Source: Fusobacteriota bacterium (GTDB lineage: Bacteria > Fusobacteriota > Fusobacteriia > Fusobacteriales > JAAYPW01). Taken from it: a DNA stretch of 64,000 bases. Positions within the stretch are counted from its first letter, which is position 1; every line of letters starts with the position of its first letter. The stretch covers positions 29,009 to 93,008 of the forward strand of contig JAAYPW010000115.1 in NCBI GenBank assembly GCA_012519615.1, given 5' to 3'. Under the pieces are notes generated by a model. That model saw only the letters and a list, made by a program, of their open reading frames with translations. It had not been told where the DNA came from and did not search any database. The position numbers and the translations under genes were made by a program. Shown here piece by piece: positions 6,563 to 64,000 of the stretch.

Positions 6563-8512
6563 ATGGAAAAATTAATAACTGTTGAGCAATTAGTTAAAGA
6601 TTTAAAATTACGTGTTCTTTGTGGTAAAGATAATTTGTTAAAAACAAATATAACTGCTGATATTTACAGACCCGGAATAGAATTAACAGGATATTTATTA
6701 GAAAACAATCAAAATTTAGATAAGTATATTCATGTTATTGGTAAAGAGGAGGTAAAATATTTCTATTCATTACCAGAAGATATAAGAAAAGAGAATTTTA
6801 TAAGATATTTTAGTTATTCATTTCCTTGTTTAATTGTTGTAGATAATAAAAATTTAAAAAAAGATTTTATAGAGATTGCAAAAATTGAAAATAAAATATT
6901 ACTTCAAGTGAAGGGAACAATTCAAAGCTTTTTAACAATATTACGTATATATTTGCAAAAGGAACTTGCTCCTGAAATTATTTTAAATAATTTTACACTA
7001 TTAGATATTTTTGGAATTGGTTTAATGATTACAGGAGATGAAAGTGCTAAAATTGGTTCGACAATTGAATTACTTGAAAAAGGACATAGATTTATAACTG
7101 ATGAGTTACTTGTTATAAAAAAAATATCTGATACACAATTAATTGGTGAAAATGGATATCATCAAAATCAAAAAAATAAGAGATATATATTAAAAGTATT
7201 TAATGATGAAAAAATTGATGTTGTTGAGTACTTTGGAATAGGTTCATCCCGTAGAAATAAAGAAATTGATTTAATTATAAAATTTGAAAAATGGGATAGC
7301 AATAAAACATATGATAGACTAGGTGTTGATATAACAAATCAATATTTATTGGGAATAAATATCCCAAAACTTGTAATACCAGTAAGAAAAGGTAGAAATT
7401 TAGGAATTATACTAGAAACTGCTGCAATTAATGAAAGACTAAAAAAAAGTGGAGAAAATTCAGCTCTTACATTTATTAATGAAACTCAAAAAATGATTAC
7501 AATTAATCGTAAAAAAAGAGAAAAAATTGAGGAGGGCAAAATGAGTAATAACAAAATAATAAATGCTAGAACCATTAAAGAAAAATTTGACCTTAAAATT
7601 TTATATGGTGAATCTTTATTAGATGAAAAAAATCTTACAACCCCATATATACACAGACCTTCCTTGGAATTTTCTGGGTTCTATGAAATTTTGGAAGAGG
7701 GTGGGTATAAAAATCTTCAATTAATTGGTCAATCAGAATTAAATTATTTAAATAAATTATTAGACCAAAAAAGAGATAGATATTTAGAACACTATTTTAG
7801 CTATGATTTTCCATTTTTGTTAATAACTGGTGCAAAAAATGTGCCTGATTATATTATAAAAAATGTAAAAGAAAAAAATCATTTATTAATGTGTACCGAA
7901 CAAGATATAAATGAGGTTTCTGAAGAATTAATTGATTATTTTGAAAAAGAATTTGCAGAAGAAATAACTATGCATGGAGTATTAGTTGAAGTATTTGGAT
8001 TCGGAGTTATGCTTATTGGTAAAAGCGGGATAGGTAAAAGTGAAACAGCTTTGGAATTAATTCACAGAGGTCATAGATTAATTGCTGATGATAAGGTGAG
8101 ATTTGTCAAATATAATGATGGTCGAGTAATAGGTAGTGGACATAAATCACTGTACTTTATGGAGATACGAGGCATTGGAATTATTGATATAAAAACTTTA
8201 TATGGATTAGGATCAGTAAGGCATGAAAAACAACTTGATGTGGTAATAGAATTAAAGGAATTAAAAGTTGAAGATTACCTTACAAAAAAAGAGGAACCAA
8301 AAGAGGAAATTGAAATATTGGGAAAAAAATTTCCTAAAATTGAATTATATATATCTTCAGGAAGAAACGCATCATCAATGGTTGAAGTATCTACCATGAA
8401 CTTACGTGCAAAATTCTTAGGATATGAAAATGAAAAAAGAACGGAAAATATGGACAAAAAAGATAATTTCTTTTCTAATATTGGAAATATAATTACAGGG
8501 AGAAAAAAATAA
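6563..8512 (+). CDS. hprK: HPr kinase/phosphorylase, tandem two-module fusion (649 aa)
   Basis: Two HprK-like modules, aa 1-326 and 327-649. The second carries an intact P-loop, GKSGIGKSETALELIHRGHRLIADD, and EIRGIGIIDI. The first has GDESAKIGST at the P-loop position but keeps YDRLG...IPVRKGRNLGIILETAAINERLK. Confidence 0.85.
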   Translation: MEKLITVEQLVKDLKLRVLCGKDNLLKTNITADIYRPGIELTGYLLENNQNLDKYIHVIGKEEVKYFYSLPEDIRKENFIRYFSYSFPCLIVVDNKNLKKDFIEIAKIENKILLQVKGTIQSFLTILRIYLQKELAPEIILNNFTLLDIFGIGLMITGDESAKIGSTIELLEKGHRFITDELLVIKKISDTQLIGENGYHQNQKNKRYILKVFNDEKIDVVEYFGIGSSRRNKEIDLIIKFEKWDSNKTYDRLGVDITNQYLLGINIPKLVIPVRKGRNLGIILETAAINERLKKSGENSALTFINETQKMITINRKKREKIEEGKMSNNKIINARTIKEKFDLKILYGESLLDEKNLTTPYIHRPSLEFSGFYEILEEGGYKNLQLIGQSELNYLNKLLDQKRDRYLEHYFSYDFPFLLITGAKNVPDYIIKNVKEKNHLLMCTEQDINEVSEELIDYFEKEFAEEITMHGVLVEVFGFGVMLIGKSGIGKSETALELIHRGHRLIADDKVRFVKYNDGRVIGSGHKSLYFMEIRGIGIIDIKTLYGLGSVRHEKQLDVVIELKELKVEDYLTKKEEPKEEIEILGKKFPKIELYISSGRNASSMVEVSTMNLRAKFLGYENEKRTENMDKKDNFFSNIGNIITGRKK

Positions 8513-21673: not shown

Positions 21674-21967
21674 ATGCGTATATTTTTTCTACTTTTAGAG
21701 AGAAGCTTAAGAATAATTGAAACACTTCTTATAATTAGAATAATATTAAGCTGGGTACTACCAGGAAACTTCTTTTATAGTATGTCAAGAGGTGGATTTT
21801 CAGAGCTTTTAAGTGATTTAGTTAAAGCGATATATAAAGTTACTGACCCGATTTTAAAACCTTTTAGGATTATAATTCCATTAGGTGGAGCAATGTTAGA
21901 TATCGGACCTATTGTTGTATTTTTTATAATAAGAATACTAAGAGGTATATTAGCTTTTCTGGCTTAA
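21674..21967 (+). CDS. yggT: YggT-family small membrane protein
   Basis: 97 aa with two hydrophobic segments and a YggT-like LLIIRIILSWV motif. It lies next to proC, a pairing common in other bacteria. Confidence 0.65.
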   Translation: MRIFFLLLERSLRIIETLLIIRIILSWVLPGNFFYSMSRGGFSELLSDLVKAIYKVTDPILKPFRIIIPLGGAMLDIGPIVVFFIIRILRGILAFLA

Positions 21968-33336: not shown

Positions 33337-33353
33337 ATATGAAGGAGGTACTA

Positions 33354-33740
33354 ATGAGAAAAATTAATTGGTATATTGTTATTTATGTATTAAGTTTTTT
33401 AATTTTATCCTCATTATTTATCATAACTTCAATTTATTTTTCAAAAATTGATGAATCTTATACAAATGTTAGTTCTTCTTTGAAAAATACGGAGGAGAAT
33501 TATGTTAGTTACTATGAAATTTTATCGTTAAAAGGAGAAATACAGGAAAATATTGAACAAATATTGGCATTGGGATATATTAAAGATAAAAATCTTGCTA
33601 ATATAATCTATAATAATTTTTATAGTTCAAATAAAATTATAAAAGAAAAGATTGATAAAATAGAAAAAAATATAATATTAAGAGATTTTTTTAAAGAAAT
33701 TGAAGTTTTAATAGAAAAAATTATTGATTTAAAAAAATAG
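33354..33740 (+). CDS. Sensor histidine kinase, N-terminal segment (TM1 + start of the extracytoplasmic domain). It ends at an in-frame TAG.
   Basis: GAAGGAGG SD precedes the ATG at 33354. TM helix WYIVIYVLSFLILSSLFIITSIYF. It is in the same frame as 33867..35870, with no other stop between them. Confidence 0.6.
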   Translation: MRKINWYIVIYVLSFLILSSLFIITSIYFSKIDESYTNVSSSLKNTEENYVSYYEILSLKGEIQENIEQILALGYIKDKNLANIIYNNFYSSNKIIKEKIDKIEKNIILRDFFKEIEVLIEKIIDLKK

Positions 33741-33866
33741 GAATTAGATTTAATCTACGATTATAATGATTTATATATAAAACATAGAGAAGATAATATA
33801 AAATTAATACAATTATCTAATGAAATTAATAATCAAAAAATTGTTGATTATACAAAAATTGATACA

Positions 33867-35870
33867 ATGTACAGAAAATATAAAAATATTAAAAATATAA
33901 AATTTGAAAAAACAGATAATGAACTGGAAATAATAGAAAAAAGTTATAAAACCCTTAAAATAGAAAATCTAACGATTTATGAATTAGAGAGAGCATTAGT
34001 AAATGAAAATATATCAAAAATTTCAACTAAATTTAAAGAGCTTAGTGAATTAAATTCTTTGTCTAGAGAAATTTTTATTGCAACTAATATAGAAGAACTT
34101 AATTTAGAAAATAAAATAAATAACAGAGCAGATATTATCGTTTCTTCCATATATATATTAAATAGTCCAGGATATTTTGCTATGGATATTTTTCAGGAAC
34201 AACTAATAAAAAATTTACTTTTTGAATATACGAATAAACTGGAAAAATTAATAAAAATTAAGAAAAAATTTATAATAAAAGAGGAAAATAGTAAAATAAT
34301 TACTGATGAAATGTACGAATTACAAAATAAAATTGATTATAATAAAGAAAATTCATTCTTAATTATAAATAATGATTTACAAAATAAAATTGATGAATTT
34401 AATAAAATTTTAACACCTGTTCAACAAGATTTTGATAAATCAACAAGAGAAAGTCTTGTGGAGTCTTTTACAATTAATAAAAAAAATGAAAGAGATATTA
34501 AGAAAACAATATTAAATATATATATTATTTTATTTGGGAGTCTATTTTTAGCAAGCATTATATCAACTATTATTATAAAAAAAATAAATAATAATTTAAA
34601 AAATAGAAATAAAGATTTGGAAAAAAATGTAGAAATAAGGACATCTGAAATAAAAGAGAATAACAATAGATTGTGTAGTATTCAAAAAATAGGTTTAAGA
34701 ATATATAACGAGAAAGAATCTAAAAAAGCAATCGAATTATTATTGACAGTTATATCAAAAGAAAAATATTATATGTTAGGTTTTTATTTGGAAAAAGATT
34801 CTGTAGATAGGAATAAAGCACATATTTTAGGAATTGGAATAAACTATAATGATTTTAATGAAGATAAAGCAACAAAAGCAAATAAAATTGTGAATAAATC
34901 TATTGATTTAAGTCAAAATGATTTCTTGCTTAATTCATTTGATGATGATAAAATATATGAATATTTAGATAATAAAGATCAATTACAGGTGGGGAATTAT
35001 AATTTAGATAAATATATTACAGTTCCTGTAGTTACGTACGTAAATAATATAAGGTATATTTATGGACTTATAGTTCTTGAATTAAATGATAATATTACAA
35101 GTATACCAGCTCTAGAAAAAGAAGCTCTTAAGATTTTTGGAGGATATTTAGCATCTTATTTTGAAAAAATTAGTTTAGAAAGTGAAAAAGAAAAAAATGA
35201 GAGGTTAAAACTTTTATTAGCATTATCATCATCTATTGTACATGAACTTCGTACACCTGTAACATCAATACTTGGATTTTCAAGATTGATTAATTCAAAT
35301 AACAGTAATAAAGACAAACTACAAATGTATTCAAATCAGATTGAAAAAGAGTGTTATAGAATAGAAGACATGGCAAAAGAGTTAATAGATTATTCATCTT
35401 CACATTCATATGAATTATATTATTTTAATAAACTTAATATAATAAAGCTATTTGATGATGTAATTTCAAATTGGTTAAATGAGTTTAAGTTAAATAATGG
35501 AGAACTGTGTATTGATTTTATAAATATTAATAATGAAGATGAAATAGTTCTAGATGAGCAAAAAATCAAGAAAGTTTTTAACTATATAATTAAAAATGCA
35601 TTGGAATCTTTTAATAAAGAAGACAATAAACTTTGTATTGTTGTAGAGAAAACTAAAGAATACATAGTTTTTGAATTTAAAGATAATGGAAGAGGTATAG
35701 ATGAGGAATTACTAAAAAAAATATTTGAGCCATTAGTTACAAACAAAATACAAGGAACAGGATTAGGTTTATCTATTGTAAAAAATATAATCTATCACCA
35801 TAACGGAAAAATAGATATAACTTCAAAATTAGATTTAGGTACAACGTTAATGTTACGGTTTCCAATATAA
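33867..35870 (+). CDS. Sensor histidine kinase, C-terminal segment (rest of sensor domain, TM2, GAF-like, HisKA, HATPase_c)
   Basis: TM helix ILNIYIILFGSLFLASIISTIII, H-box SSIVHELRTPVTSILGF, and FKDNGRGI, GTGLGLSIVKNII. No SD precedes the ATG at 33867. The open frame continues upstream to the TAG at 33738. Confidence 0.7.
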   Translation: MYRKYKNIKNIKFEKTDNELEIIEKSYKTLKIENLTIYELERALVNENISKISTKFKELSELNSLSREIFIATNIEELNLENKINNRADIIVSSIYILNSPGYFAMDIFQEQLIKNLLFEYTNKLEKLIKIKKKFIIKEENSKIITDEMYELQNKIDYNKENSFLIINNDLQNKIDEFNKILTPVQQDFDKSTRESLVESFTINKKNERDIKKTILNIYIILFGSLFLASIISTIIIKKINNNLKNRNKDLEKNVEIRTSEIKENNNRLCSIQKIGLRIYNEKESKKAIELLLTVISKEKYYMLGFYLEKDSVDRNKAHILGIGINYNDFNEDKATKANKIVNKSIDLSQNDFLLNSFDDDKIYEYLDNKDQLQVGNYNLDKYITVPVVTYVNNIRYIYGLIVLELNDNITSIPALEKEALKIFGGYLASYFEKISLESEKEKNERLKLLLALSSSIVHELRTPVTSILGFSRLINSNNSNKDKLQMYSNQIEKECYRIEDMAKELIDYSSSHSYELYYFNKLNIIKLFDDVISNWLNEFKLNNGELCIDFININNEDEIVLDEQKIKKVFNYIIKNALESFNKEDNKLCIVVEKTKEYIVFEFKDNGRGIDEELLKKIFEPLVTNKIQGTGLGLSIVKNIIYHHNGKIDITSKLDLGTTLMLRFPI

Positions 35871-39540: not shown

Positions 39541-41244
39541 ATGAATTTAAAAAATAAATTTTATATTAACTTTTTTGCAATAGGTATAGTAATATTTTCT
39601 ATTTTATATATTATATTTATAAGAGAAAGTATAGAAAAATATTTAGGCTTTATCTTGTCTTTTTTTATAACATTTGGAGTAATTAATTTTATATTTTTTA
39701 GTAGTATAATAAAAAGAATAGAAAATATTACAAAATATATAAAAGATTTAGGTAATGAAAATGCAAAAAAGATACTTAAAAATGACTCTAAAATATTAGA
39801 TGAGATAGGAGAAATTTCAAAAAATTTAAATATATTTATTGATGATGTGGAGTCAATTGTAGTAGAGTCCAATTTTGTAAGTGAAGAAATCGCAAATAGA
39901 AGTATGGATCTTACTGGAATAATTAATTGTATAATTAGTGGAAAAAATGAAGGAAATAGAAACAATATATCTTCATTAAAAAATCAAACAGAAGACATTT
40001 TAAAAGGGGTAGAAAATCAAACTGCATCTACACAGGAGATATCTGCAAATATAAGTGAAATATCATATAATTTAAATAATTTATCTAAAAATACAGAAGA
40101 AACAATGAAATTTTCAAATGAGACTTTAAATTATGCTAAAATAGGGCGTGAATCACTTGAAGAGAGTTTAACTAGCATTCTATCCGTAGAAGATACTGTT
40201 AAAAAAATTGAAAAAAAATCATTAGAGCTTATAAATTCATCTGAAAAAATAGGAAATATTGTAAGTATGATATCACAAATATCAGAAAGAACAAATCTTC
40301 TATCATTAAATGCAGCAATTGAAGCAGCAAGAGCTGGAGAAGCAGGAAAAGGTTTTGCTGTTGTTGCGGAAGAGGTAAGAACATTAGCTGATAACTCAAA
40401 TAGTGCTTCAAGAGAGATTGAAGACCTTATAAGAGTAATTCAAAACGAGATTAGAGAGGTAACGTCAAGTATTAGAGAAACATATACGAAGGTTGAAAAT
40501 AGTCGTGATAATTTTGGAAATACAAGAGAAAAATTTTTAAATATAGTAAGTAAGGTAGATAGTACAAATGAACAGATTGAAAATATATCTAACTCTATTA
40601 TAGAACAAGCAAAATCTATAGATGAGATTGATATAGTAACTAGAAGTATTGCAGAAAATAGTGAAGAGATTGGTCAACTTTCAACAGAACAAAATATCTC
40701 TTTTGATAATATTGCTAAAGAGTTAAATAATGTTTTAAATTATTCTAAAAAAGTATCTGAAATCTCTTTAGGTTTAAAGAATATAGCAAGTTTTTTCACA
40801 GTAAATCTTAATAAATCAGTAAATGAAAGAACAGATTTGGTAAAATGGAGTGAAAAATTTAGTGTTAATGTAGAGCAATTTGATAATGAACATAAAAATT
40901 TATTAAATATAATAAATAAATTAAATAAAGCAACATTAGAAGGGGAAGGAATTAATTCAGTCAACGAAATACTTGATGAATTAATAGATTATACTGCATT
41001 TCACTTTAAAAACGAGGAGGAATTATTTCAAAAATATAAATATCCAAATTATAAAGAACATAAGAAAACTCATGATAGTATAATCGAAAAAGTTCTGGAA
41101 ATGAAAGATAAGTTTAATGAAAATCCTGATGATGAAAATGTTATTTATGAAATAATGGAGCTTCTAAAAAAATGGATTATAAATCATATATTAGGGACGG
41201 ATAAAAAATATAGTGATTTTTTTAAAAATAAAAAAATTAAATAA
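39541..41244 (+). CDS. Methyl-accepting chemotaxis protein with a C-terminal hemerythrin-like domain (DcrH-like)
   Basis: Two N-terminal TM helices with a minimal loop. The MCP signalling hairpin reads [34 protein letters not shown]-terminal hemerythrin motifs: [43 protein letters not shown]. Confidence 0.85.
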
Positions 41245-41289: not shown

Positions 41290-42465
41290 ATGAAATATTT
41301 AATAATTGGAAATGGAGTAGCTGGAACAGAAGCAAGTTTAATAATTAAAAAAAATAATGAAAATGCAGATATAACTATAATAGATAGTGAAAAACATCTT
41401 TTTTATTATAGACCTCGTTTAATTGATCACTTAGCAGGAAAAATTGATGACGATAAAATCATTGCACACAAACAAAGTATTTATGATAATAATAATATTA
41501 ATATCATTAAAAATACTGAGGTTGTAAATATTGATATTAAAAATAAAATAGTTATATGTGATGATAATACTACATATAAATATGATAAACTTTTAATTGC
41601 TACTGGCGCATCACCGTTAATTCCATCTGTAGAATTGGAAGATAATCATGGAGTATTTGAATTTAGAGATATAGAAGACTCTCATAAAATACGAGAATTT
41701 TGTACCGAAAATAAAGGGGAATATGCTATAATAGGTGGTGGATTGTTAGGTATTGAAACTGCAAACGCTATTATGCAATTAGGTTGTGATGTAAGGATCA
41801 TAGAATTTTATAATAGAATTTTACCTAGACAATTAGATGAGGAAACTTCAAATCTATTAGAAAAAAAGTTATCTGATAAAGGGATAAAATTTAATTTAAA
41901 TTGTAGTGTAGATAAAATTGAGACAATTCATGAAGAAAATAGTATTAAAAAAAGAATAGTTTTAAAAAATGGGGAGTCAATAGTTGTAAATGGTATAATT
42001 TTTTCTACAGGAATATGTCCTAAAATTGAACTATTTAAACAAATTGGAATTCTAACAAACAGAGGTGTAATTGTAAATGAATTTATGGAAACAAATATAA
42101 AAGATATATATGCTGCTGGTGATATTGCAGAGTTTAATAGTATTATATATGGTTTATGGCTACCTTCAAAAAAACAAGGTGAAATTGCTGGAGAAAATAT
42201 GTCTGGAAATAATAAAAAATTTGAATCAATTCCTATGGAAACAAGATTAAAAGTAACAGGAATAAATCTTTTTTCTGTTGGCGACTTCAACAAAAAATTT
42301 GAAGAGATCAAAACATATGATAACGGAGAATCGTTTAAAAAATATTTTATAAATAATAAAAAATTAGAAGCCGCAATAATTATTGGCGACAATAAATTAC
42401 CGCTAATTGTAGGAAAAGTATTAAATGGTCGTGAACCCCTGGAATCATTATATAAATTAGAATAA
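41290..42465 (+). CDS. FAD/NAD(P)H-dependent pyridine nucleotide-disulfide-family oxidoreductase (rubredoxin reductase / NADH oxidase-like)
   Basis: 391 aa with IIGNGVAGTEAS (FAD site), IIGGGLLGIETA (NAD site), LLIATGASP and YAAGDIAEF. Confidence 0.8.
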   Translation: MKYLIIGNGVAGTEASLIIKKNNENADITIIDSEKHLFYYRPRLIDHLAGKIDDDKIIAHKQSIYDNNNINIIKNTEVVNIDIKNKIVICDDNTTYKYDKLLIATGASPLIPSVELEDNHGVFEFRDIEDSHKIREFCTENKGEYAIIGGGLLGIETANAIMQLGCDVRIIEFYNRILPRQLDEETSNLLEKKLSDKGIKFNLNCSVDKIETIHEENSIKKRIVLKNGESIVVNGIIFSTGICPKIELFKQIGILTNRGVIVNEFMETNIKDIYAAGDIAEFNSIIYGLWLPSKKQGEIAGENMSGNNKKFESIPMETRLKVTGINLFSVGDFNKKFEEIKTYDNGESFKKYFINNKKLEAAIIIGDNKLPLIVGKVLNGREPLESLYKLE

Positions 42466-42479
42466 AATAATTATTATAT

Positions 42480-42515
42480 GGTGTTTGAATTAATTTTCGA
42501 ACACCTTTTTATTTT
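42480..42515 (+). terminator. Rho-independent terminator after the oxidoreductase gene
   Basis: GGTGTTTGAA / TTCGAACACC stem with a 6-nt loop, then TTTTTATTTT. Confidence 0.85.
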
Positions 42516-42585
42516 AAAAAATAAAGAAATATTAAAAAAACTTTGATTTTACTAAATAGATAGGAAAATTATCCGATAATTGTAT

Positions 42586-42655
42586 ATAATATAATATAAT
42601 ATAATATAATATAATATAATATAATATAATATAATATAATATAATATAATATAAT
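42586..42655. repeat. Perfect pentanucleotide microsatellite (ATAAT)x14
   Basis: Counted directly: 70 nt, 14 uninterrupted units. The array creates 13 overlapping TATAAT hexamers. It ends 10 nt before the AGGGAG SD of pseB. Confidence 0.95.
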
Positions 42656-42679
42656 TAATAAAAACAGGGAGTGAATGAA

Positions 42680-43687
42680 ATGTTAAATGGTGCAAATGTT
42701 TTGGTAACAGGCGGAACAGGCTCTTTTGGTAAAAAGTTTATTAACATGGCGTTAGATAGATATGATTTGGAAAGATTAATTATATATTCAAGGGATGAAT
42801 TTAAACAAAGTGAGTTAAAGCAAAATTTAAAAATTAAACTAAGCCCAGAAAAATTTAAAAAATTAAGATTTTTTATAGGAGATGTTCGCGATAAGGAGAG
42901 ACTTTTAAGAGCATTTAAAGGAGTTGATTACGTAATACACGCAGCAGCTATGAAACAAATAACAACTTGTGAATATAACCCCTTCGAAGCTATAAAAACT
43001 AATATACATGGAGCACAAAATGTAATTGATGCTGCAATTGATAGAGATGTAAAAAAAGTAGTAGCACTTTCTACAGATAAAGCTGTAAATCCTATAAATC
43101 TTTATGGCGGAACTAAACTTGTATCTGATAAACTTTTTATCTCTGCAAATGCGTATTCAGGTGGAAATGGGACAATATTTTCAATAGTAAGATACGGTAA
43201 TGTTGCTGGAAGTCGTGGTTCAGTAATACCTTTTTTTAAAAAAATGGTGGAAGATGGTGTAAATGAATTACCCATTACAGATTTTAATATGACTCGTTTT
43301 TGGATAACTCTCGAAGAGGGCGTTGAACTTGTTTTTAAAGCGTTATCTGAATCAAAAGGTGGTGAAACATATATTTCAAAAATACCTTCATTTAAAATAA
43401 CGGATTTAGCATATGCAATAAAAGATAACATTAAATTAAAAGAGATTGGAATACGAGAAGGGGAAAAAATAGATGAAGTTATGATAACGAAAGATGATTG
43501 GAAAAATACATATGAATATGAGAAACATTATATAATTTATCCAAGCTTTGAGTGGTGGAGTAAAAAAAATTTTACAAATGGAGGTATTCAAATTGCAAAA
43601 GATTTTGAATACAATTCGGGAAATAATAAAGAGTGGTTATCAGTGGCCGATTTAAAAAAAGCATTAATAACACTAGAAAAATATTAG
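42680..43687 (+). CDS. pseB: UDP-N-acetylglucosamine 4,6-dehydratase (inverting)
   Basis: Motifs VLVTGGTGSFGK, HAAAMKQI, STDKAVNPINLYGGTK and VRYGNVAGSRGSV (FlaA1/PseB-like). AGGGAG SD lies 8 nt before the ATG at 42680; the listed GTG at 42671 is less likely. Confidence 0.85.
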   Translation: MLNGANVLVTGGTGSFGKKFINMALDRYDLERLIIYSRDEFKQSELKQNLKIKLSPEKFKKLRFFIGDVRDKERLLRAFKGVDYVIHAAAMKQITTCEYNPFEAIKTNIHGAQNVIDAAIDRDVKKVVALSTDKAVNPINLYGGTKLVSDKLFISANAYSGGNGTIFSIVRYGNVAGSRGSVIPFFKKMVEDGVNELPITDFNMTRFWITLEEGVELVFKALSESKGGETYISKIPSFKITDLAYAIKDNIKLKEIGIREGEKIDEVMITKDDWKNTYEYEKHYIIYPSFEWWSKKNFTNGGIQIAKDFEYNSGNNKEWLSVADLKKALITLEKY

Positions 43688-46011: not shown

Positions 46012-47046
46012 ATGAAAATAGGTAATTTTAATCTAAATGATAATATATTTATTATTGCTGAGATGTCTGCAAATCATGGCAAAAATATTAAAATAGCTCT
46101 TGATACAATATATGCAGCTAAAGAATCAGGAGCAAATGCTATTAAAATACAAACTTATACACCTGATACAATTACTATAAATTGTAGTAATGAATATTTT
46201 AAACTAAAACAAGGTACGATATGGGATGGAAAAAATTTATATGAATTATATAAAGAAGCTTATACCCCTTGGGAATGGCATGATGAATTAAAAAAATATG
46301 CAGATAGCATTGGAATAATTTTATTTTCAACCCCTTTTGACAATAGCGCTGTAGATTTACTTGAATCAATAAATGTATTAGCTTATAAAATTGCATCATT
46401 TGAAATTACGGATATTCCTTTAATTAAGTATGTTGCAAGTAAGCAAAAACCGATTATAATTTCAACAGGGATAGCTAATTTAGATGACATACAAAATGCA
46501 GTAGATACATGTAGAGGTGTAGGTAATAATAATATTGCACTTCTCAAGTGTACCTCTGCATATCCTGCTAAAATAGAAGATGCAAATTTAAAAACAATAC
46601 AAAATTTAAAAGAAACTTTTAATGTTGTTTCAGGATTATCGGATCATACATTAGGTATTACTGTTCCAATTGTGTCTGTTGCAATGGGGGCAAGAATAAT
46701 TGAAAAACATTTTATATTAGATAAATCAATTGGTGGACCTGATTCATCTTTTTCTCTGAATAAAGATGAATTTAAATTAATGGTAAATTCTGTAAGAGAA
46801 GCAGAAAAATCAGTTGGAGAGATAGATTATAAATTAACAGAACAAAAATTAAAAAGTAGAGAATTGTCGAGATCTCTATTTGTAGTTAAGGATATAAAAA
46901 AAGGAGAAATTTTTACAAAAGATAATATTAGATCAATAAGACCAGGATATGGATTACCACCTAAATATTATGATGAAATTATTGGAAAAAGAGCTGCAAA
47001 TGATATAAATAGAGGGCTACCTTTAAAATGGAGCGATATAATATAA
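46012..47046 (+). CDS. pseI: Pseudaminic acid synthase (NeuB family)
   Basis: 344 aa with IIAEMSANHG, IKIQTY, KIASFE, LKCTSAYP, SDHTLG and a C-terminal SAF domain (RSLFVVKDIKKGEIFT). Confidence 0.85.
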   Translation: MKIGNFNLNDNIFIIAEMSANHGKNIKIALDTIYAAKESGANAIKIQTYTPDTITINCSNEYFKLKQGTIWDGKNLYELYKEAYTPWEWHDELKKYADSIGIILFSTPFDNSAVDLLESINVLAYKIASFEITDIPLIKYVASKQKPIIISTGIANLDDIQNAVDTCRGVGNNNIALLKCTSAYPAKIEDANLKTIQNLKETFNVVSGLSDHTLGITVPIVSVAMGARIIEKHFILDKSIGGPDSSFSLNKDEFKLMVNSVREAEKSVGEIDYKLTEQKLKSRELSRSLFVVKDIKKGEIFTKDNIRSIRPGYGLPPKYYDEIIGKRAANDINRGLPLKWSDII

Positions 47047-47063: not shown

Positions 47064-48242
47064 ATGTATATTCCCTACGGTAAACAGTGCATAGATGAAA
47101 AGGATATTGAATCAGTAATTAATGTTTTAAAATCAGACTATTTAACTCAGGGACCTAAGATAAGAGAGTTCGAAGAAAAAGTTGCAAATTATCATGGTGT
47201 GAAATATGCTGTTGCACTATCTAATGGTACTGCTGCATTACACGCCGCATATAAAGTTATTGGTTTAGATGTAGATGATGAATTTATAACAACTCCGATT
47301 ACATTTGCAGCTACTTCTAACGGTGGTCTTTATTTAGGAGGTAAGCCTGTTTTTGTTGATATAGATAAGAGTGATTATAATATAGATGTCACAAAAATAG
47401 AGGAAAAAATAACTTCAAGAACAAAAGTTATTACGCCTGTTTCATATGCAGGATTTCCAGTTAATATGGAAGAGATTAAAAAAATTGCAAATAAATATAA
47501 TTTAAAAATCATTCATGATGCAGCACATGCTATTGGTGCAAGACGAAATGGATACAGTGTATCCGATATTGCAGATATGACGGTGTTATCATTTCATCCT
47601 GTAAAACACATAACTTGTGGTGAAGGTGGCATGATTTTAACAAATAATGAAGAGTATTATAAAAAATTACTTTTATTTCGTACGCATGGTATTACAAAAA
47701 ATATTGATGAAATGGAGGCAAAAGACGGTCCATGGTATTATGAAATGCAAGAATTAGGATATAATTATAGAATTACAGATATACAATGTGCTCTTGGAAT
47801 TACACAGATGGAAAAGTTAAATGGATTTTTATGCAAAAGAAATAAAATCGCAGAATTTTATGATAAAAATCTTATAAAAATGGACTGGATCACAACTCCT
47901 AAATACTTCAATAAAGATTGGATAGATACACCTCTTTATAGTAATTTACATAAAAAACCAAATAATTTATGTTCATATCACATCTACCCAATTTTAATAA
48001 AAAATAAATCTAATAGAAGAGCATTTGTTGAATATATGCGTTCTAGTGGTATTTATGTTCAAGTTCACTATATACCTTTACATTTAATGCCTTATTATAA
48101 AAAACATTTTGGATATAAAGCTGGTGATTTCCCTATTGCAGAGGATTTCTATGAAAGAGAAGTAAGTATCCCTATATATCCTGATTTAACAGAACAGGAG
48201 CTGAATTATATCCTTAATAAAATATATACTTTTAAATTTTAA
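47064..48242 (+). CDS. pseC: UDP-4-amino-4,6-dideoxy-N-acetyl-beta-L-altrosamine transaminase (DegT/DnrJ/EryC1 family)
   Basis: IPYGKQCIDEKDIESV, SNGTAALH, DAAHAIGA and SFHPVKHITCGEGG (PLP lysine). The context is the pse operon. Confidence 0.85.
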   Translation: MYIPYGKQCIDEKDIESVINVLKSDYLTQGPKIREFEEKVANYHGVKYAVALSNGTAALHAAYKVIGLDVDDEFITTPITFAATSNGGLYLGGKPVFVDIDKSDYNIDVTKIEEKITSRTKVITPVSYAGFPVNMEEIKKIANKYNLKIIHDAAHAIGARRNGYSVSDIADMTVLSFHPVKHITCGEGGMILTNNEEYYKKLLLFRTHGITKNIDEMEAKDGPWYYEMQELGYNYRITDIQCALGITQMEKLNGFLCKRNKIAEFYDKNLIKMDWITTPKYFNKDWIDTPLYSNLHKKPNNLCSYHIYPILIKNKSNRRAFVEYMRSSGIYVQVHYIPLHLMPYYKKHFGYKAGDFPIAEDFYEREVSIPIYPDLTEQELNYILNKIYTFKF

Positions 48243-48330
48243 TATATTAAAATATTCATATTATTTGTTATTGAAATAATTAATATAATATGATATAATT
48301 AGTAGGGTTATATATTTTTAGAGAGGGGGA

Positions 48331-60815: not shown

Positions 60816-60888
60816 TTAAAAAAACTAAAAAAAAATAAAAAAAAAGCAATAACTAAATATATAGTTAATATATGTGAGGTGAAATATT

Positions 60889-61413
60889 ATGAAAAATGGA
60901 TTTACTGTACTTGAATTAGTTTTATCAATGGCAATTATTATGATAATTACATCATTTGGTATTATGCAATTTGGGGATATGGAGAAAAGAGAATTAAATA
61001 GAATACGTATTGAATTTAATCTATTTATAGATAATGCAGCATTACACTGTTTAAATTCTGGTGAACGTTCTAATATTGTACTAGATTTTAATAACAAAGT
61101 AATAACTGCAAAAGGTCCACGCTATAATAAAAAGTATAAATTACCCAAAAAATTAAATTATTTTATAAAAGATGGAAATAAAACTATTCTTGATAAATTT
61201 GAATTTCAATTAAATTCCACAGGTAATGCAAATAAAATGTTTGTTATATATATCAGCGATAAACATAAGAAAAAAGTACTACATAGAATAGGTATATATT
61301 CTATAAGCGTAGTTAAATATGTAAAGATTAGACAATTTGTTCCGAAAAAATCTCCGTTATATCTTACAGATGATAAATTTTATGAAATTGAAAAATGGAA
61401 GGAAATACAATAA
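60889..61413 (+). CDS. Type IV pilin-like / type II secretion pseudopilin (prepilin N-terminal methylation motif)
   Basis: MKNGFTVLELVLSMAIIMIITSFG matches the class III signal (G|FTxxE plus a hydrophobic helix). 174 aa; the remainder is GspH/FimT-like at best. Confidence 0.7.
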   Translation: MKNGFTVLELVLSMAIIMIITSFGIMQFGDMEKRELNRIRIEFNLFIDNAALHCLNSGERSNIVLDFNNKVITAKGPRYNKKYKLPKKLNYFIKDGNKTILDKFEFQLNSTGNANKMFVIYISDKHKKKVLHRIGIYSISVVKYVKIRQFVPKKSPLYLTDDKFYEIEKWKEIQ

Positions 61414-61483
61414 ATGAAAATAAATTGCTAATACTTTAATTGTAAAAATAATTTATATAAAAATATTAAAAAGGGGGATTAAA

Positions 61484-64000
61484 TTGAAAAAAATTATTTT
61501 TTATTTACACTAGTTTTTCTTATTCTAACAGGTTGTTTTAATAGTAATAGTGAAAACAATATTAAACTTGAAAAAGGTCTATCAGCAATAAAAGGAAAAA
61601 ACGAAATTGAGATACTTACAAATAAAAAACATTTAGCTACACAAATTGAGATTAAAGGTGATATTGAAAAAGATGATATTTTTGTGTCTAATGAATTTTT
61701 ATCAATTATTGAAAAAAATAATGATGTAATTACTATTAATGTATCAAACTTAAATAGCATTGATAACAATATTAAATTTAAACTTTTAAGAGATAACTTT
61801 GATAATATTAATATTAAAATTGTAAGAATTGTTACATTAGAGGATGTATTTGTTGAGGATAATATCAAAAAAAATCTGAACAATATCTTATTAGGAGATT
61901 ATGATGAAAATGGTATTGTTGATTTAAATGACTTTTCTATATTTACAGAAAATTTTAATAAAAAAAATAGTATATATGATATTGCACCATCATCAAAAGG
62001 TACAAATAAATGGGGAGAAATTTATTGTAATTTAGCCGGTGATGGATTTATAGGTATAGAGGATTTAGTTGTATTTGCACATAACTTTGGAAAAATAAAA
62101 CCTATAGATGATTTAAATATTGAAGTAAAAGATATTAATATTGTTATTGATAAACAAACTCTAAAAATAGGGGATACATTAAATGTATATGGAAATGTTA
62201 TTCCAGAAAATGCAGCAAATAAAAAAATAATTTGGACAACAAATAATAACAATATTAGTATTACAAATATAAATGATACAACAATTAGTATAACTGCTAA
62301 TAATGTAGGTACAACTGTCTTAACTGCAACAAGTGTAAATGGAAAATTAAAAACTATTAATATTATTATAGCTGAAGAGGAAACAAAACAAGATTTAATA
62401 ATTTATATCGAATCAACAACTGCACCGAGATTATATGCGTGGACAGGAAGTGGAGCAAGTGAAGTTAAATTGCTTGGTGCGTGGCCAGGAAAAGATTTAA
62501 CAGAACAAGAAGGAAAATTTTATTATTATAATTTTGGTAGTGAGATTAAATCACTTAATTATATACATTTCATTGGTGGACAATCTGCTGATTTAACTAC
62601 ATCTGAAAGTATATGGATTACATCGGATAAAAAAATACATAAAGCAAACCCATATGAACCATCAAAACCAATTATAACGGTTGGATTAGTTGATGGAAAA
62701 TATAACGGTGATACTTCTATATCAGTGGAAATTACTGCAATTAATAATACAGTTGATACTGAGAATATTTTGTTTAATGGAAAAAAAATTCCATATAGTA
62801 ATACAGAAGCTAGTTTTAAAATTTCTGATTATATAAATGACGGAGACTCTGGATTACTTGAAATTACTGCTAGTAATTCACAAGGAACTGTTACAAAAGT
62901 TGTAAGTATTGAAAGAGATGATACAATCTCATCTTTAAAATTGTACTTAGAAAAAAATCAAGTTGTTTATGGTTGGACTGTTGTAAATGGTGAAGTAATT
63001 ACAGTAAATGGTGGTTGGCCTGGAAAACAATTAGATAAAACAATTGTAACAAATGGGAAAACTTGGTATGTACTGGATTTTGGATTTGTAGACTCTGGAA
63101 GTTATATATTAAATGGTCAAGGAGGTACAGACCAGTCAATTAGCCAAACTACTTGGGTTGATGCAACTGGTGGAAAATATAATGTCGATCCATATGAACC
63201 AACAAAACCAGAAATAAGTATTACACCGGGTTCTGGTACATATTCAGATAAAAATGGTAAAAGAAAAATTGTAATTTCTGTTACAGTTAGAAACGCAACA
63301 ATAGATTCAAAATCTGCAACAATTACAGTTGATGGAACTTCAAAACCGATAACTTTAACAGGTGAAAAAACCGAATTAATATTTTCAGAAACTATTCCTA
63401 ATAATAGTACTGCAACAATTAAGGTTACAGCATCAAATTCATTAGGTACATCTGAAAAAACTGTTGAAATCAAAAGGGATGATGAGTATACTGTGCCGCG
63501 TGGTGAATTTACTTGGGATAATGCACTTATATACTTCGTATTAACAGATCGATTTTATAATGGAAATCCAAGTAATGATAATTCTTATGGTAGAAAAAAT
63601 AAAATTGGTGCAGATCCATTAGATATTGCAACATTCCATGGTGGAGACGTTGCAGGATTAACAGAAAAAATTGAAGAGGGATATTTTGATGAATTAGGTG
63701 TAAACGCAATATGGGTAACAGCATTGTATGAACAAATACATGGATGGGTTGGTGGAGGAAGTGGAGATTTCCCACATTATGCTTATCATGGTTATTATGG
63801 ACTAGATTGGACTGCAGCAGATAAAAATATGGGTACAGTTGATGAAATAAGAAAATTTGTTGACACAGCTCATGAACATGGAATAAGAGTAATAATGGAT
63901 ATAGTTGTTAATCATGTTGGATATAATTCAGCAATGGACATGGTAGATTACGGATTTGCATCTTATGATAAAGCTGTAATTACAGATCGTGATTGGATGC
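61484..64000 (+). CDS. Modular secreted alpha-amylase lipoprotein (dockerin-like + Big_2-like + 2x CBM25/26-like + GH13 catalytic domain). The start is frameshifted by an A7 tract and the 3' end lies outside the window.
   Basis: AAGGGGGA SD, then TTG at 61484, then A7 (61487-61493). The TTG frame stops after 9 codons. The adjacent frame, open from 61483 to 64000 with no stop (translated by hand), reads ...NYFLFTLVFLILTGCFNSN (lipobox) ... GDYDENGIVDLNDF ... LYAWTGSG..GAWPGKDL ... FVLTDRFYNGNPSNDN, GVNAIWVT, RVIMDIVVNHVG. Confidence 0.8.

Follow-up and report, generated by a model that had tools for sequence, protein, structure and literature searches.

A perfect ATAAT array in the predicted 5' leader of a pseudaminic acid operon of an uncultured Fusobacteriota bacterium

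An uninterrupted array of 14 ATAAT units precedes the pseudaminic acid (pse) genes of an uncultured Fusobacteriota bacterium, and we put at about even the chance that it is a transcribed leader microsatellite, located behind a conserved sigma-28-type promoter and having at most a graded effect on expression. The array lies in a stretch of DNA of 64,000 nucleotides (hereafter the window) that belongs to a metagenome-assembled genome (MAG) from anaerobic digesters and biogas reactors. The proteins of the window are identical to NLK63069-63096 (MAG Fusobacteria/Fusobacteriota bacterium), the GC content is ~25%, and DNA of >99.7% identity was found in biogas-fermenter and other metagenome assemblies.

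Results

A perfect pentanucleotide array in front of the pse genes

Positions 42586-42655 are a perfect (ATAAT)x14 repeat of 70 nt with zero interruptions, exactly as an earlier note on this DNA had described. The same note counted 13 overlapping TATAAT hexamers; there are in fact 14 perfect ones, starting at 42585, 42590 and so on to 42650. TRF scored the array at 147 and every other array in the window at 62 or less. The runner-up among perfect repeats with a unit of 1-9 nt across the 64-kb window has 18 nt, and when the window was simulated 200 times with a first-order Markov model, perfect period-5 runs reached at most 20 nt (mean 12.7). The 70-nt array is far above chance expectation and is the sole long simple repeat within the window. 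An Rfam search of the window returned zero families. Uninterrupted repeats of such length and purity slip readily elsewhere, and these 14 perfect 5-nt units are of that kind, as the note had supposed.

We re-measured the geometry of the region and obtained the distances reported earlier. From the end of the terminator (42515) to the start of the array there are 70 nt, and the array ends 10 nt before the Shine-Dalgarno (SD) sequence and 24 nt before the pseB ATG, in the promoter/5' leader position of a rheostat locus (Table 1). Unique sequence flanks the array, ...CCGATAATTGTAT before it and TAATAAAAACAGGG after it. The gene that precedes the region (41290-42465) encodes a NirB-like FAD oxidoreductase. 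Its terminator, with a 10-bp stem, a 6-nt loop and a TTTTTATTTT tail, is the only terminator-like site of the region (shuffled sequences yield 0.0-0.4), and it shields the pse operon from read-through. With the array lying between this terminator and the SD, the argument that the only room for a pse promoter is in or next to the array holds.

Table 1 Features of the array region and the predicted pse operon, in window coordinates
Feature	Position	Strand	Evidence or remark
Intrinsic terminator of the preceding gene (NirB-like FAD oxidoreductase)	42480..42515	+	Hairpin 42480-42505 and T-run
Conserved promoter block, two boxes with a variable spacer of constant length	42545..42585	+	33/41 identical to L098
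-35-like box TAAATAGA, sigma-28 (FliA/SigD)-type	42553..42560	+	Sequence; identical in L098
-10-like box TCCGATAA (consensus GCCGATAA), 11 nt past the -35 box	42572..42579	+	Sequence, conservation
(ATAAT)x14 perfect pentanucleotide array	42586..42655	+	Sequence, TRF, exact count
3'-most TATAAT	42650..42655	+	Corresponds in position to the relative's -10-like TAAAAT, each 24 nt ahead of the ATG
Shine-Dalgarno AGGGAG	42666..42671	+	8 nt before the pseB ATG; sequence
pseB (UDP-GlcNAc 4,6-dehydratase, inverting)	42680..43687	+	TIGR03589, 516 bits (cut-off 408)
Cytidylyltransferase, pseF-like, 281 aa	43697..44542	+	CTP_transf_3, Pfam PF02348 on record
pseG-pseH fusion (hydrolase and N-acetyltransferase), 474 aa	44532..45956	+	TIGR03590 and TIGR03585, both below cut-off
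pseI (pseudaminic acid synthase)	46012..47046	+	TIGR03586, 510 bits (cut-off 340)
pseC (aminotransferase), final operon gene	47064..48242	+	TIGR03588, 461 bits (cut-off 423.5)
miaB promoter TTGAAA-N17-TATAAT with TG, canonical	48271-48299		11/12; after pseC

Judged by their predicted products, the downstream genes are a pseudaminic acid operon, with PseB, PseI and PseC above their NCBIfam equivalog cut-offs. This bears out the earlier assignment to a surface nonulosonic acid, and the same three equivalogs give the locus the predicted surface-structure product of a rheostat locus. The pseB product (335 aa) is identical to NCBI NLK63088.1. The cytidylyltransferase has only weak, KdsB-type NCBIfam matches. 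Within the fusion protein, the pseG domain (residues 7-269) reaches 132 bits with TIGR03590 (cut-off 153.6) and the pseH domain (residues 328-465) 37.5 bits with TIGR03585 (cut-off 93.1). Beyond the host species, the nearest PseB homologues share at most 81% identity, and those from 78% identity downward are clostridial, tissierellial and thermotogal. The neighbours of the operon are housekeeping genes (dnaN, glgB, hprK, pnp, miaB and rho).

A candidate sigma-28-type promoter block upstream of the array

The sigma-28/SigD consensus is TAAA-N15-GCCGATAA (TAAA-N15-CCGATAA), and TAAATAGA-N11-TCCGATAA at 42553-42579 matches it near-perfectly and with the correct spacing. We searched the window with the pattern TAAA-N14-16-CCGATA and obtained two matches against 0.44 expected, of which the one upstream of the array is the only intergenic one. 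The other, at 21901-21926, lies antisense inside a yggT-like ORF and was rejected as a chance match.

Three Logan contigs (L098-L100) represent a relative with 81% PseB identity and no array, from a sister lineage present in samples DRR821167, SRR25909817 and SRR25909831. Over the block, 33 of 41 positions are identical and both boxes and their spacing are kept, while the sequence of the spacer and the leader diverge; the comparison covers 133 nt upstream of pseB in what is in essence a single relative. In a third lineage (L228, 78% PseB identity), TAAA-N17-CGATAT stands before pseB. We then scanned 80 other pse loci from other anaerobes with the relaxed motif TAAA-N16-18-CGATA[AT]. It occurs within 300 nt upstream of pseB in seven of them against 0.56 expected, a ~12-fold enrichment (Poisson P ~2e-6) for which the background was the rest of the same 80 loci, mostly coding DNA, and in which the loci are phylogenetically non-independent. 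Because sigma-28/SigD-type motifs stand ~12-fold over background, the enrichment suggests that pseB operons are often members of the flagellar regulon. The seven motifs lie 51-114 nt before pseB, in the clostridial-type loci L040, L046, L053, L054, L065, L068 and L086.

Sigma-28 promoters usually start transcription ~7 nt past the -10 box. By this geometry the start most likely falls at ~42586 +/- 2, the first base of the array. The block can alternatively be read as a weak sigma-70 promoter (TAAATA-N16-GATAAT, 8/12), which would start in the same place. We infer both the sigma-28 assignment and the start site from these sequence features. Of the two placements that the earlier note had offered for the pse promoter, the one next to the array is thereby favored, the block at 42545-42585 being conserved where the array is absent, and the one within the array is disfavored by the weak -35 matches of its hexamers.

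Against a sigma-28 promoter, known Fusobacteriota are mostly non-motile, the MCP gene of the window lacks a sigma-28-type motif, and no FliA or flagellar gene was seen in the 64-kb window. The window also contains no maf, flagellin or glycosyltransferase genes; of related genes it has only one for an MCP-hemerythrin protein, one for a CheY-like receiver and a pilin-like ORF. Our search of the literature on flagella in Fusobacteriota found nothing usable.

Comparison with an array-less relative

Where the window has the array, the relative represented by L098-L100 has 22 unrelated nucleotides (GTGTCAAAGCTGAAACCAAATA) between the same two anchors. An ungapped alignment of the two sequences anchored on the ATG gives 23 identities in 33 positions at shift 0 and 9-17 at shifts of +/-1-6. 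Because the array fills the space between two orthologous anchors, it is most likely a lineage-specific expansion within the 5' leader. The closer PseB relatives P0012, P0013 and P0015 carry pseB inside larger sugar clusters and have no comparable intergenic region. In the relative, pseB is directly followed by a gene for a 411-aa RRXRR and HNH (IscB-like) protein (L098:1395-2630), instead of the cytidylyltransferase.

Copy number in public assemblies

We compared the array with public assemblies from ENA, JGI and Logan. Both of its junctions recur base for base in independent assemblies from at least eight samples, built with MEGAHIT and SPAdes among others. Besides the window, one contig resolves the array, a MEGAHIT k127 contig of ERZ925076 (L002, L011, L101), and it has 14 units. 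This contig is base-identical to the window across 7,176 nt and therefore may come from the same data, and is perhaps not independent.

The SPAdes contigs L001 and L003 have 11 units each; with 3-6 SNPs per 7 kb, they derive from slightly different strains. When we walked the shortest de Bruijn path through the window sequence, k=55 gave 11 units, k=31 gave 6, and k=77 or 127 gave 14. Because the collapse at k=55 yields exactly 11 units, the 11-unit contigs are not evidence of a second allele; 11 is the product expected for any array of at least 11 units, and we rejected an 11-unit allele. Contigs that stop within the array do so after 55-58 nt of it in the MEGAHIT, SPAdes and JGI assemblies and after 25-30 nt in Logan (k=31), and reading these breaks as length heterogeneity was rejected on the same graph-collapse explanation. 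Every sample in which the region assembled has 11 units or more. A scan of JGI for the conserved promoter block gave 0 matches, and JGI is therefore without contigs that span the array. Public assemblies thus hold no evidence of the copy-number variation that the note had envisaged: the resolved arrays have 14 units and the 11-unit contigs are k=55 collapses. A practical warning concerns short-read contigs: a count of k/5 repeat units, such as 11 for k=55 or 6 for k=31, is an artefact of the graph and should not be taken for an allele.

Predicted consequences of a change in copy number

All units are identical, and gain or loss of units therefore does not change how far the 3'-most hexamers lie from the SD and the ATG. 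The 5'-most units are likewise fixed relative to the upstream block, and only the distance between the unique flanks changes. The earlier proposal that the transcription start would shift in 5-bp steps does not follow from such a homogeneous array. Of its suggestion that the array could switch or grade expression, the switch falls for the same reason, and a graded effect at most would be left.

We modeled the leader RNA with 0-25 units, and the predicted accessibility was constant for the SD (0.39) and for the AUG (0.77). By itself the array is predicted to form no more than a weak hairpin of A-U pairs (-7.9 kcal/mol), at the very 5' end, and the whole leader to fold no better than shuffled sequence (z = -0.11). 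A structured RNA switch was rejected on this z score and on the independence of SD accessibility from copy number. We also rejected a leader peptide, the + strand repeat having UAA in all three frames.

In the reading that we prefer, a microsatellite would have expanded in the 5' leader of the pse operon, between the sigma-28-type promoter (42553-42579) and the conserved ribosome-binding segment. Transcription would begin at ~42586, so that the mRNA would open with (AUAAU)14. Gain or loss of units would alter how long the A/U-only leader is and how many -10-like hexamers the early transcribed DNA contains. Since the array is homogeneous, no promoter element would move relative to the gene, and the effect would be graded, on transcript yield, with no on/off switch. 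It could arise through re-binding of the housekeeping sigma factor with pausing or promoter occlusion, or through altered leader stability or ribosome loading. A/U-rich leaders can affect ribosome loading and decay. In early transcribed DNA, -10-like elements cause sigma-dependent pausing (PMC7876045, PMC5389655, PMC3326312). A regulatory role of the array is a conjecture, and the array is an unusual candidate for the known class of promoter-proximal repeats that act as expression rheostats.

Alternative explanations

A promoter inside the array would be an obvious rival to a promoter in front of it. The housekeeping sigma factor would then use one or more working -10 elements within the array; the TATAAT nearest the gene would be the ancestral proximal -10, which slippage multiplied into start sites 5 nt apart, possibly alongside the sigma-28-type promoter. 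The last TATAAT does align without gaps to the TAAAAT of the array-less relative, where GTGTCA-N16-TAAAAT scores 9/12, and a start ~7 nt past 42655 would give a workable leader of ~17 nt that includes the SD. The -35 matches of the array hexamers, by contrast, are 2-3/6, below the threshold of 4/6 applied at 16-18 nt, and a TG extension is lacking; with the same threshold, our scan of 42466-42700 called no two-hexamer sigma-70 site on the + strand. In favor of such a promoter, many intergenic regions of the window reach just 8-9/12 with weak -35 boxes, and the promoters of Fusobacterium (F. nucleatum) have a pronounced -10, a weaker -35 and a median 5' UTR of 39 nt (PMC11005410), so that perfect hexamers might initiate unaided. 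Matches of 9/12 are, however, at chance level in such composition (4.1 +/- 2.1 per 235 nt in shuffles). A promoter of this kind would also leave the conserved TAAA...CCGATAA block unexplained, and copy number would leave the gene-proximal promoter geometry unchanged, which removes the switch that had been proposed. Altogether we regard initiation from the array hexamers as unlikely. Our search of the literature for ATAAT repeats in bacterial promoters found nothing usable.

The same anatomy is also compatible with neutral slippage in a tolerant A/T-rich leader; the array would then neither affect pse expression nor vary adaptively. We consider this explanation possible, if rather improbable. 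The relative manages without an array, the predicted accessibility of the ribosome-binding site is indifferent to copy number, and no length polymorphism is demonstrated among the assemblies. The host, moreover, lives in a bioreactor and is not under immune selection, and the absence of a second such repeat in 64 kb gives no sign of a genome-wide contingency-locus strategy. Yet 14 uninterrupted units with zero point substitutions are unusual for bacteria: we found no perfect repeat of at least 20 nt in the ~700 kb of the 80 related pse loci of other anaerobes. The presence of at least 11 units in every assembled sample is a further point against neutrality, and 70 nt of perfect -10 consensus right after a promoter would be unlikely to be invisible to the holoenzyme (PMC7876045). 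That the array is an artefact of assembly or scaffolding might be suspected from the many contigs that break inside it, but its junctions recur base for base across MEGAHIT, SPAdes, JGI and Logan assemblies of different samples and the k127 contig spans all 14 units, and we hold an artefact to be extremely improbable.

A more far-reaching version of the leader-microsatellite reading is that the array is an evolvable ladder of housekeeping-sigma -10 elements in the first 70 transcribed bases behind the sigma-28-type promoter, which tunes the display of pseudaminic acid. This we consider a long shot. If it were true, copy number would set the occupancy by housekeeping holoenzyme or free sigma, and through it pausing or occlusion, and slippage would make the locus a rheostat for a surface glycan in a bacterium that lives free in digesters, where selection would plausibly come from phages and not from an immune system. 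Nearly all known promoter-proximal repeats that tune surface structures come from host-adapted pathogens. An array that varies and modulates expression would extend this strategy to uncultured environmental Fusobacteriota and to nonulosonic-acid biosynthesis, and, its unit being the -10 consensus, it would provide a natural system for the handling by sigma factors of promoter-like DNA inside a transcript. If it is invariant, the array would be a curiosity, a rare and very pure bacterial microsatellite tolerated in a leader.

Relation to known systems

In Haemophilus influenzae hmw1A/hmw2A (7-bp repeats) and Neisseria meningitidis nadA (TAAA repeats), repeat number tunes adhesin transcription in steps. 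These repeats are promoter-proximal, as is the array, and lie upstream of or between mapped promoters, where they act via spacing or regulator binding; the array differs in having a unique promoter-like block upstream and in being probably transcribed. The TA repeats of H. influenzae hif and the homopolymers of Neisseria porA, opc and fetA are, like the array, slippage-prone tracts in the promoters of surface structures. They stand in the -35/-10 spacer, where unit changes alter the spacing between the two boxes and cause on/off or three-level switching. Because the array hexamers are without a -35 partner and their spacing is self-similar, this spacer-length mechanism does not apply to the array.

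The closest documented parallel is Moraxella catarrhalis uspA2, where a tract of 6-23 AGAT units in the 5' UTR tunes expression (Attia & Hansen 2006, as described in PMC4679880 and PMC7302503). The changes there are graded, ~1.4- to 3.4-fold at the mRNA level, with an optimal number of units and not an on/off response. Both systems have uninterrupted repeats between the start site (here predicted) and the start codon of a surface-related gene. The uspA2 unit is a tetranucleotide with a G, whereas the Fusobacteriota unit is an A/T-only pentamer equal to the -10 consensus. For uspA2, strain-to-strain and in-culture length variation and an effect on expression were measured, whereas both would be conjectural for the array; the host of uspA2 is a human pathogen and that of the array a digester Fusobacteriota MAG.

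Sigma-dependent pause elements resemble the array in presenting a -10-like hexamer on the non-template strand just past the start site (PMC7876045, PMC5389655, PMC3326312). The known elements are single imperfect hexamers at ~+1 to +25 of sigma-70 or sigma-38 promoters, whereas here 14 perfect ones would span +1 to +70 of a transcript from a sigma-28-type promoter, where we can only infer pausing. Flagellin-glycosylation (pse/flm) genes under sigma-28/SigD share with the array locus a TAAA-N15-CCGATAA-type motif directly upstream of pseB, and flagellated Clostridia, Tissierellia and Thermotogae supply the closest PseB homologues, of which one bears the name FlmA. Unlike those loci, the Fusobacteriota operon is without nearby flagellar, maf or flagellin genes and stands among housekeeping genes.

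We also scanned JGI for (ATAAT)10 and obtained at least 120 matches (L104-L223) with arrays of 10-25 units, nearly all in low-coding, eukaryote-like DNA of 33-45% GC. Five A/T-rich, coding-dense contigs among them (L109, L134, L174, L192 and L209) look like giant-virus or protist DNA and carry the array in short intergenic spacers, a few bases from a downstream ATG in L192 and L174. None of these JGI matches was a bacterial parallel to the array.

Other features of the window

Several observations concern other genes of the window. A 649-aa protein (6563-8512) has two tandem sets of HPr kinase N and C domains and is a duplicated HprK. At 33738, a TAG splits a histidine kinase gene (33339-35870) into ORFs of 133 and 667 aa; contig L101 has G for T at this position, the sole difference in 21 kb, and a single ORF of 838 aa. 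In SPAdes contig L001 (coverage 3.3), two A's are missing from the A6 run at 39765-39770 of the MCP-hemerythrin gene (39541-41244). The resulting frameshift in this chemoreceptor leaves 78 and 493 aa in place of 567, and may reflect homopolymer slippage in the strain or a low-coverage error.

An A-rich tract at 60817-60845 (~TAAAAAAAA x3, with two A9 runs) lies just upstream of the ORF 60889-61413, which encodes 174 aa with a type IV pilin-like N-terminus (MKNGFTVLELV...); this is another arrangement of a short repeat before a surface gene. A long + strand ORF (61483-64000) exceeds 839 aa and runs past the end of the window; its N-terminus is lipoprotein-like, and it contains repeated Ig-like segments and, in the C-terminal part, the catalytic region of an alpha-amylase.
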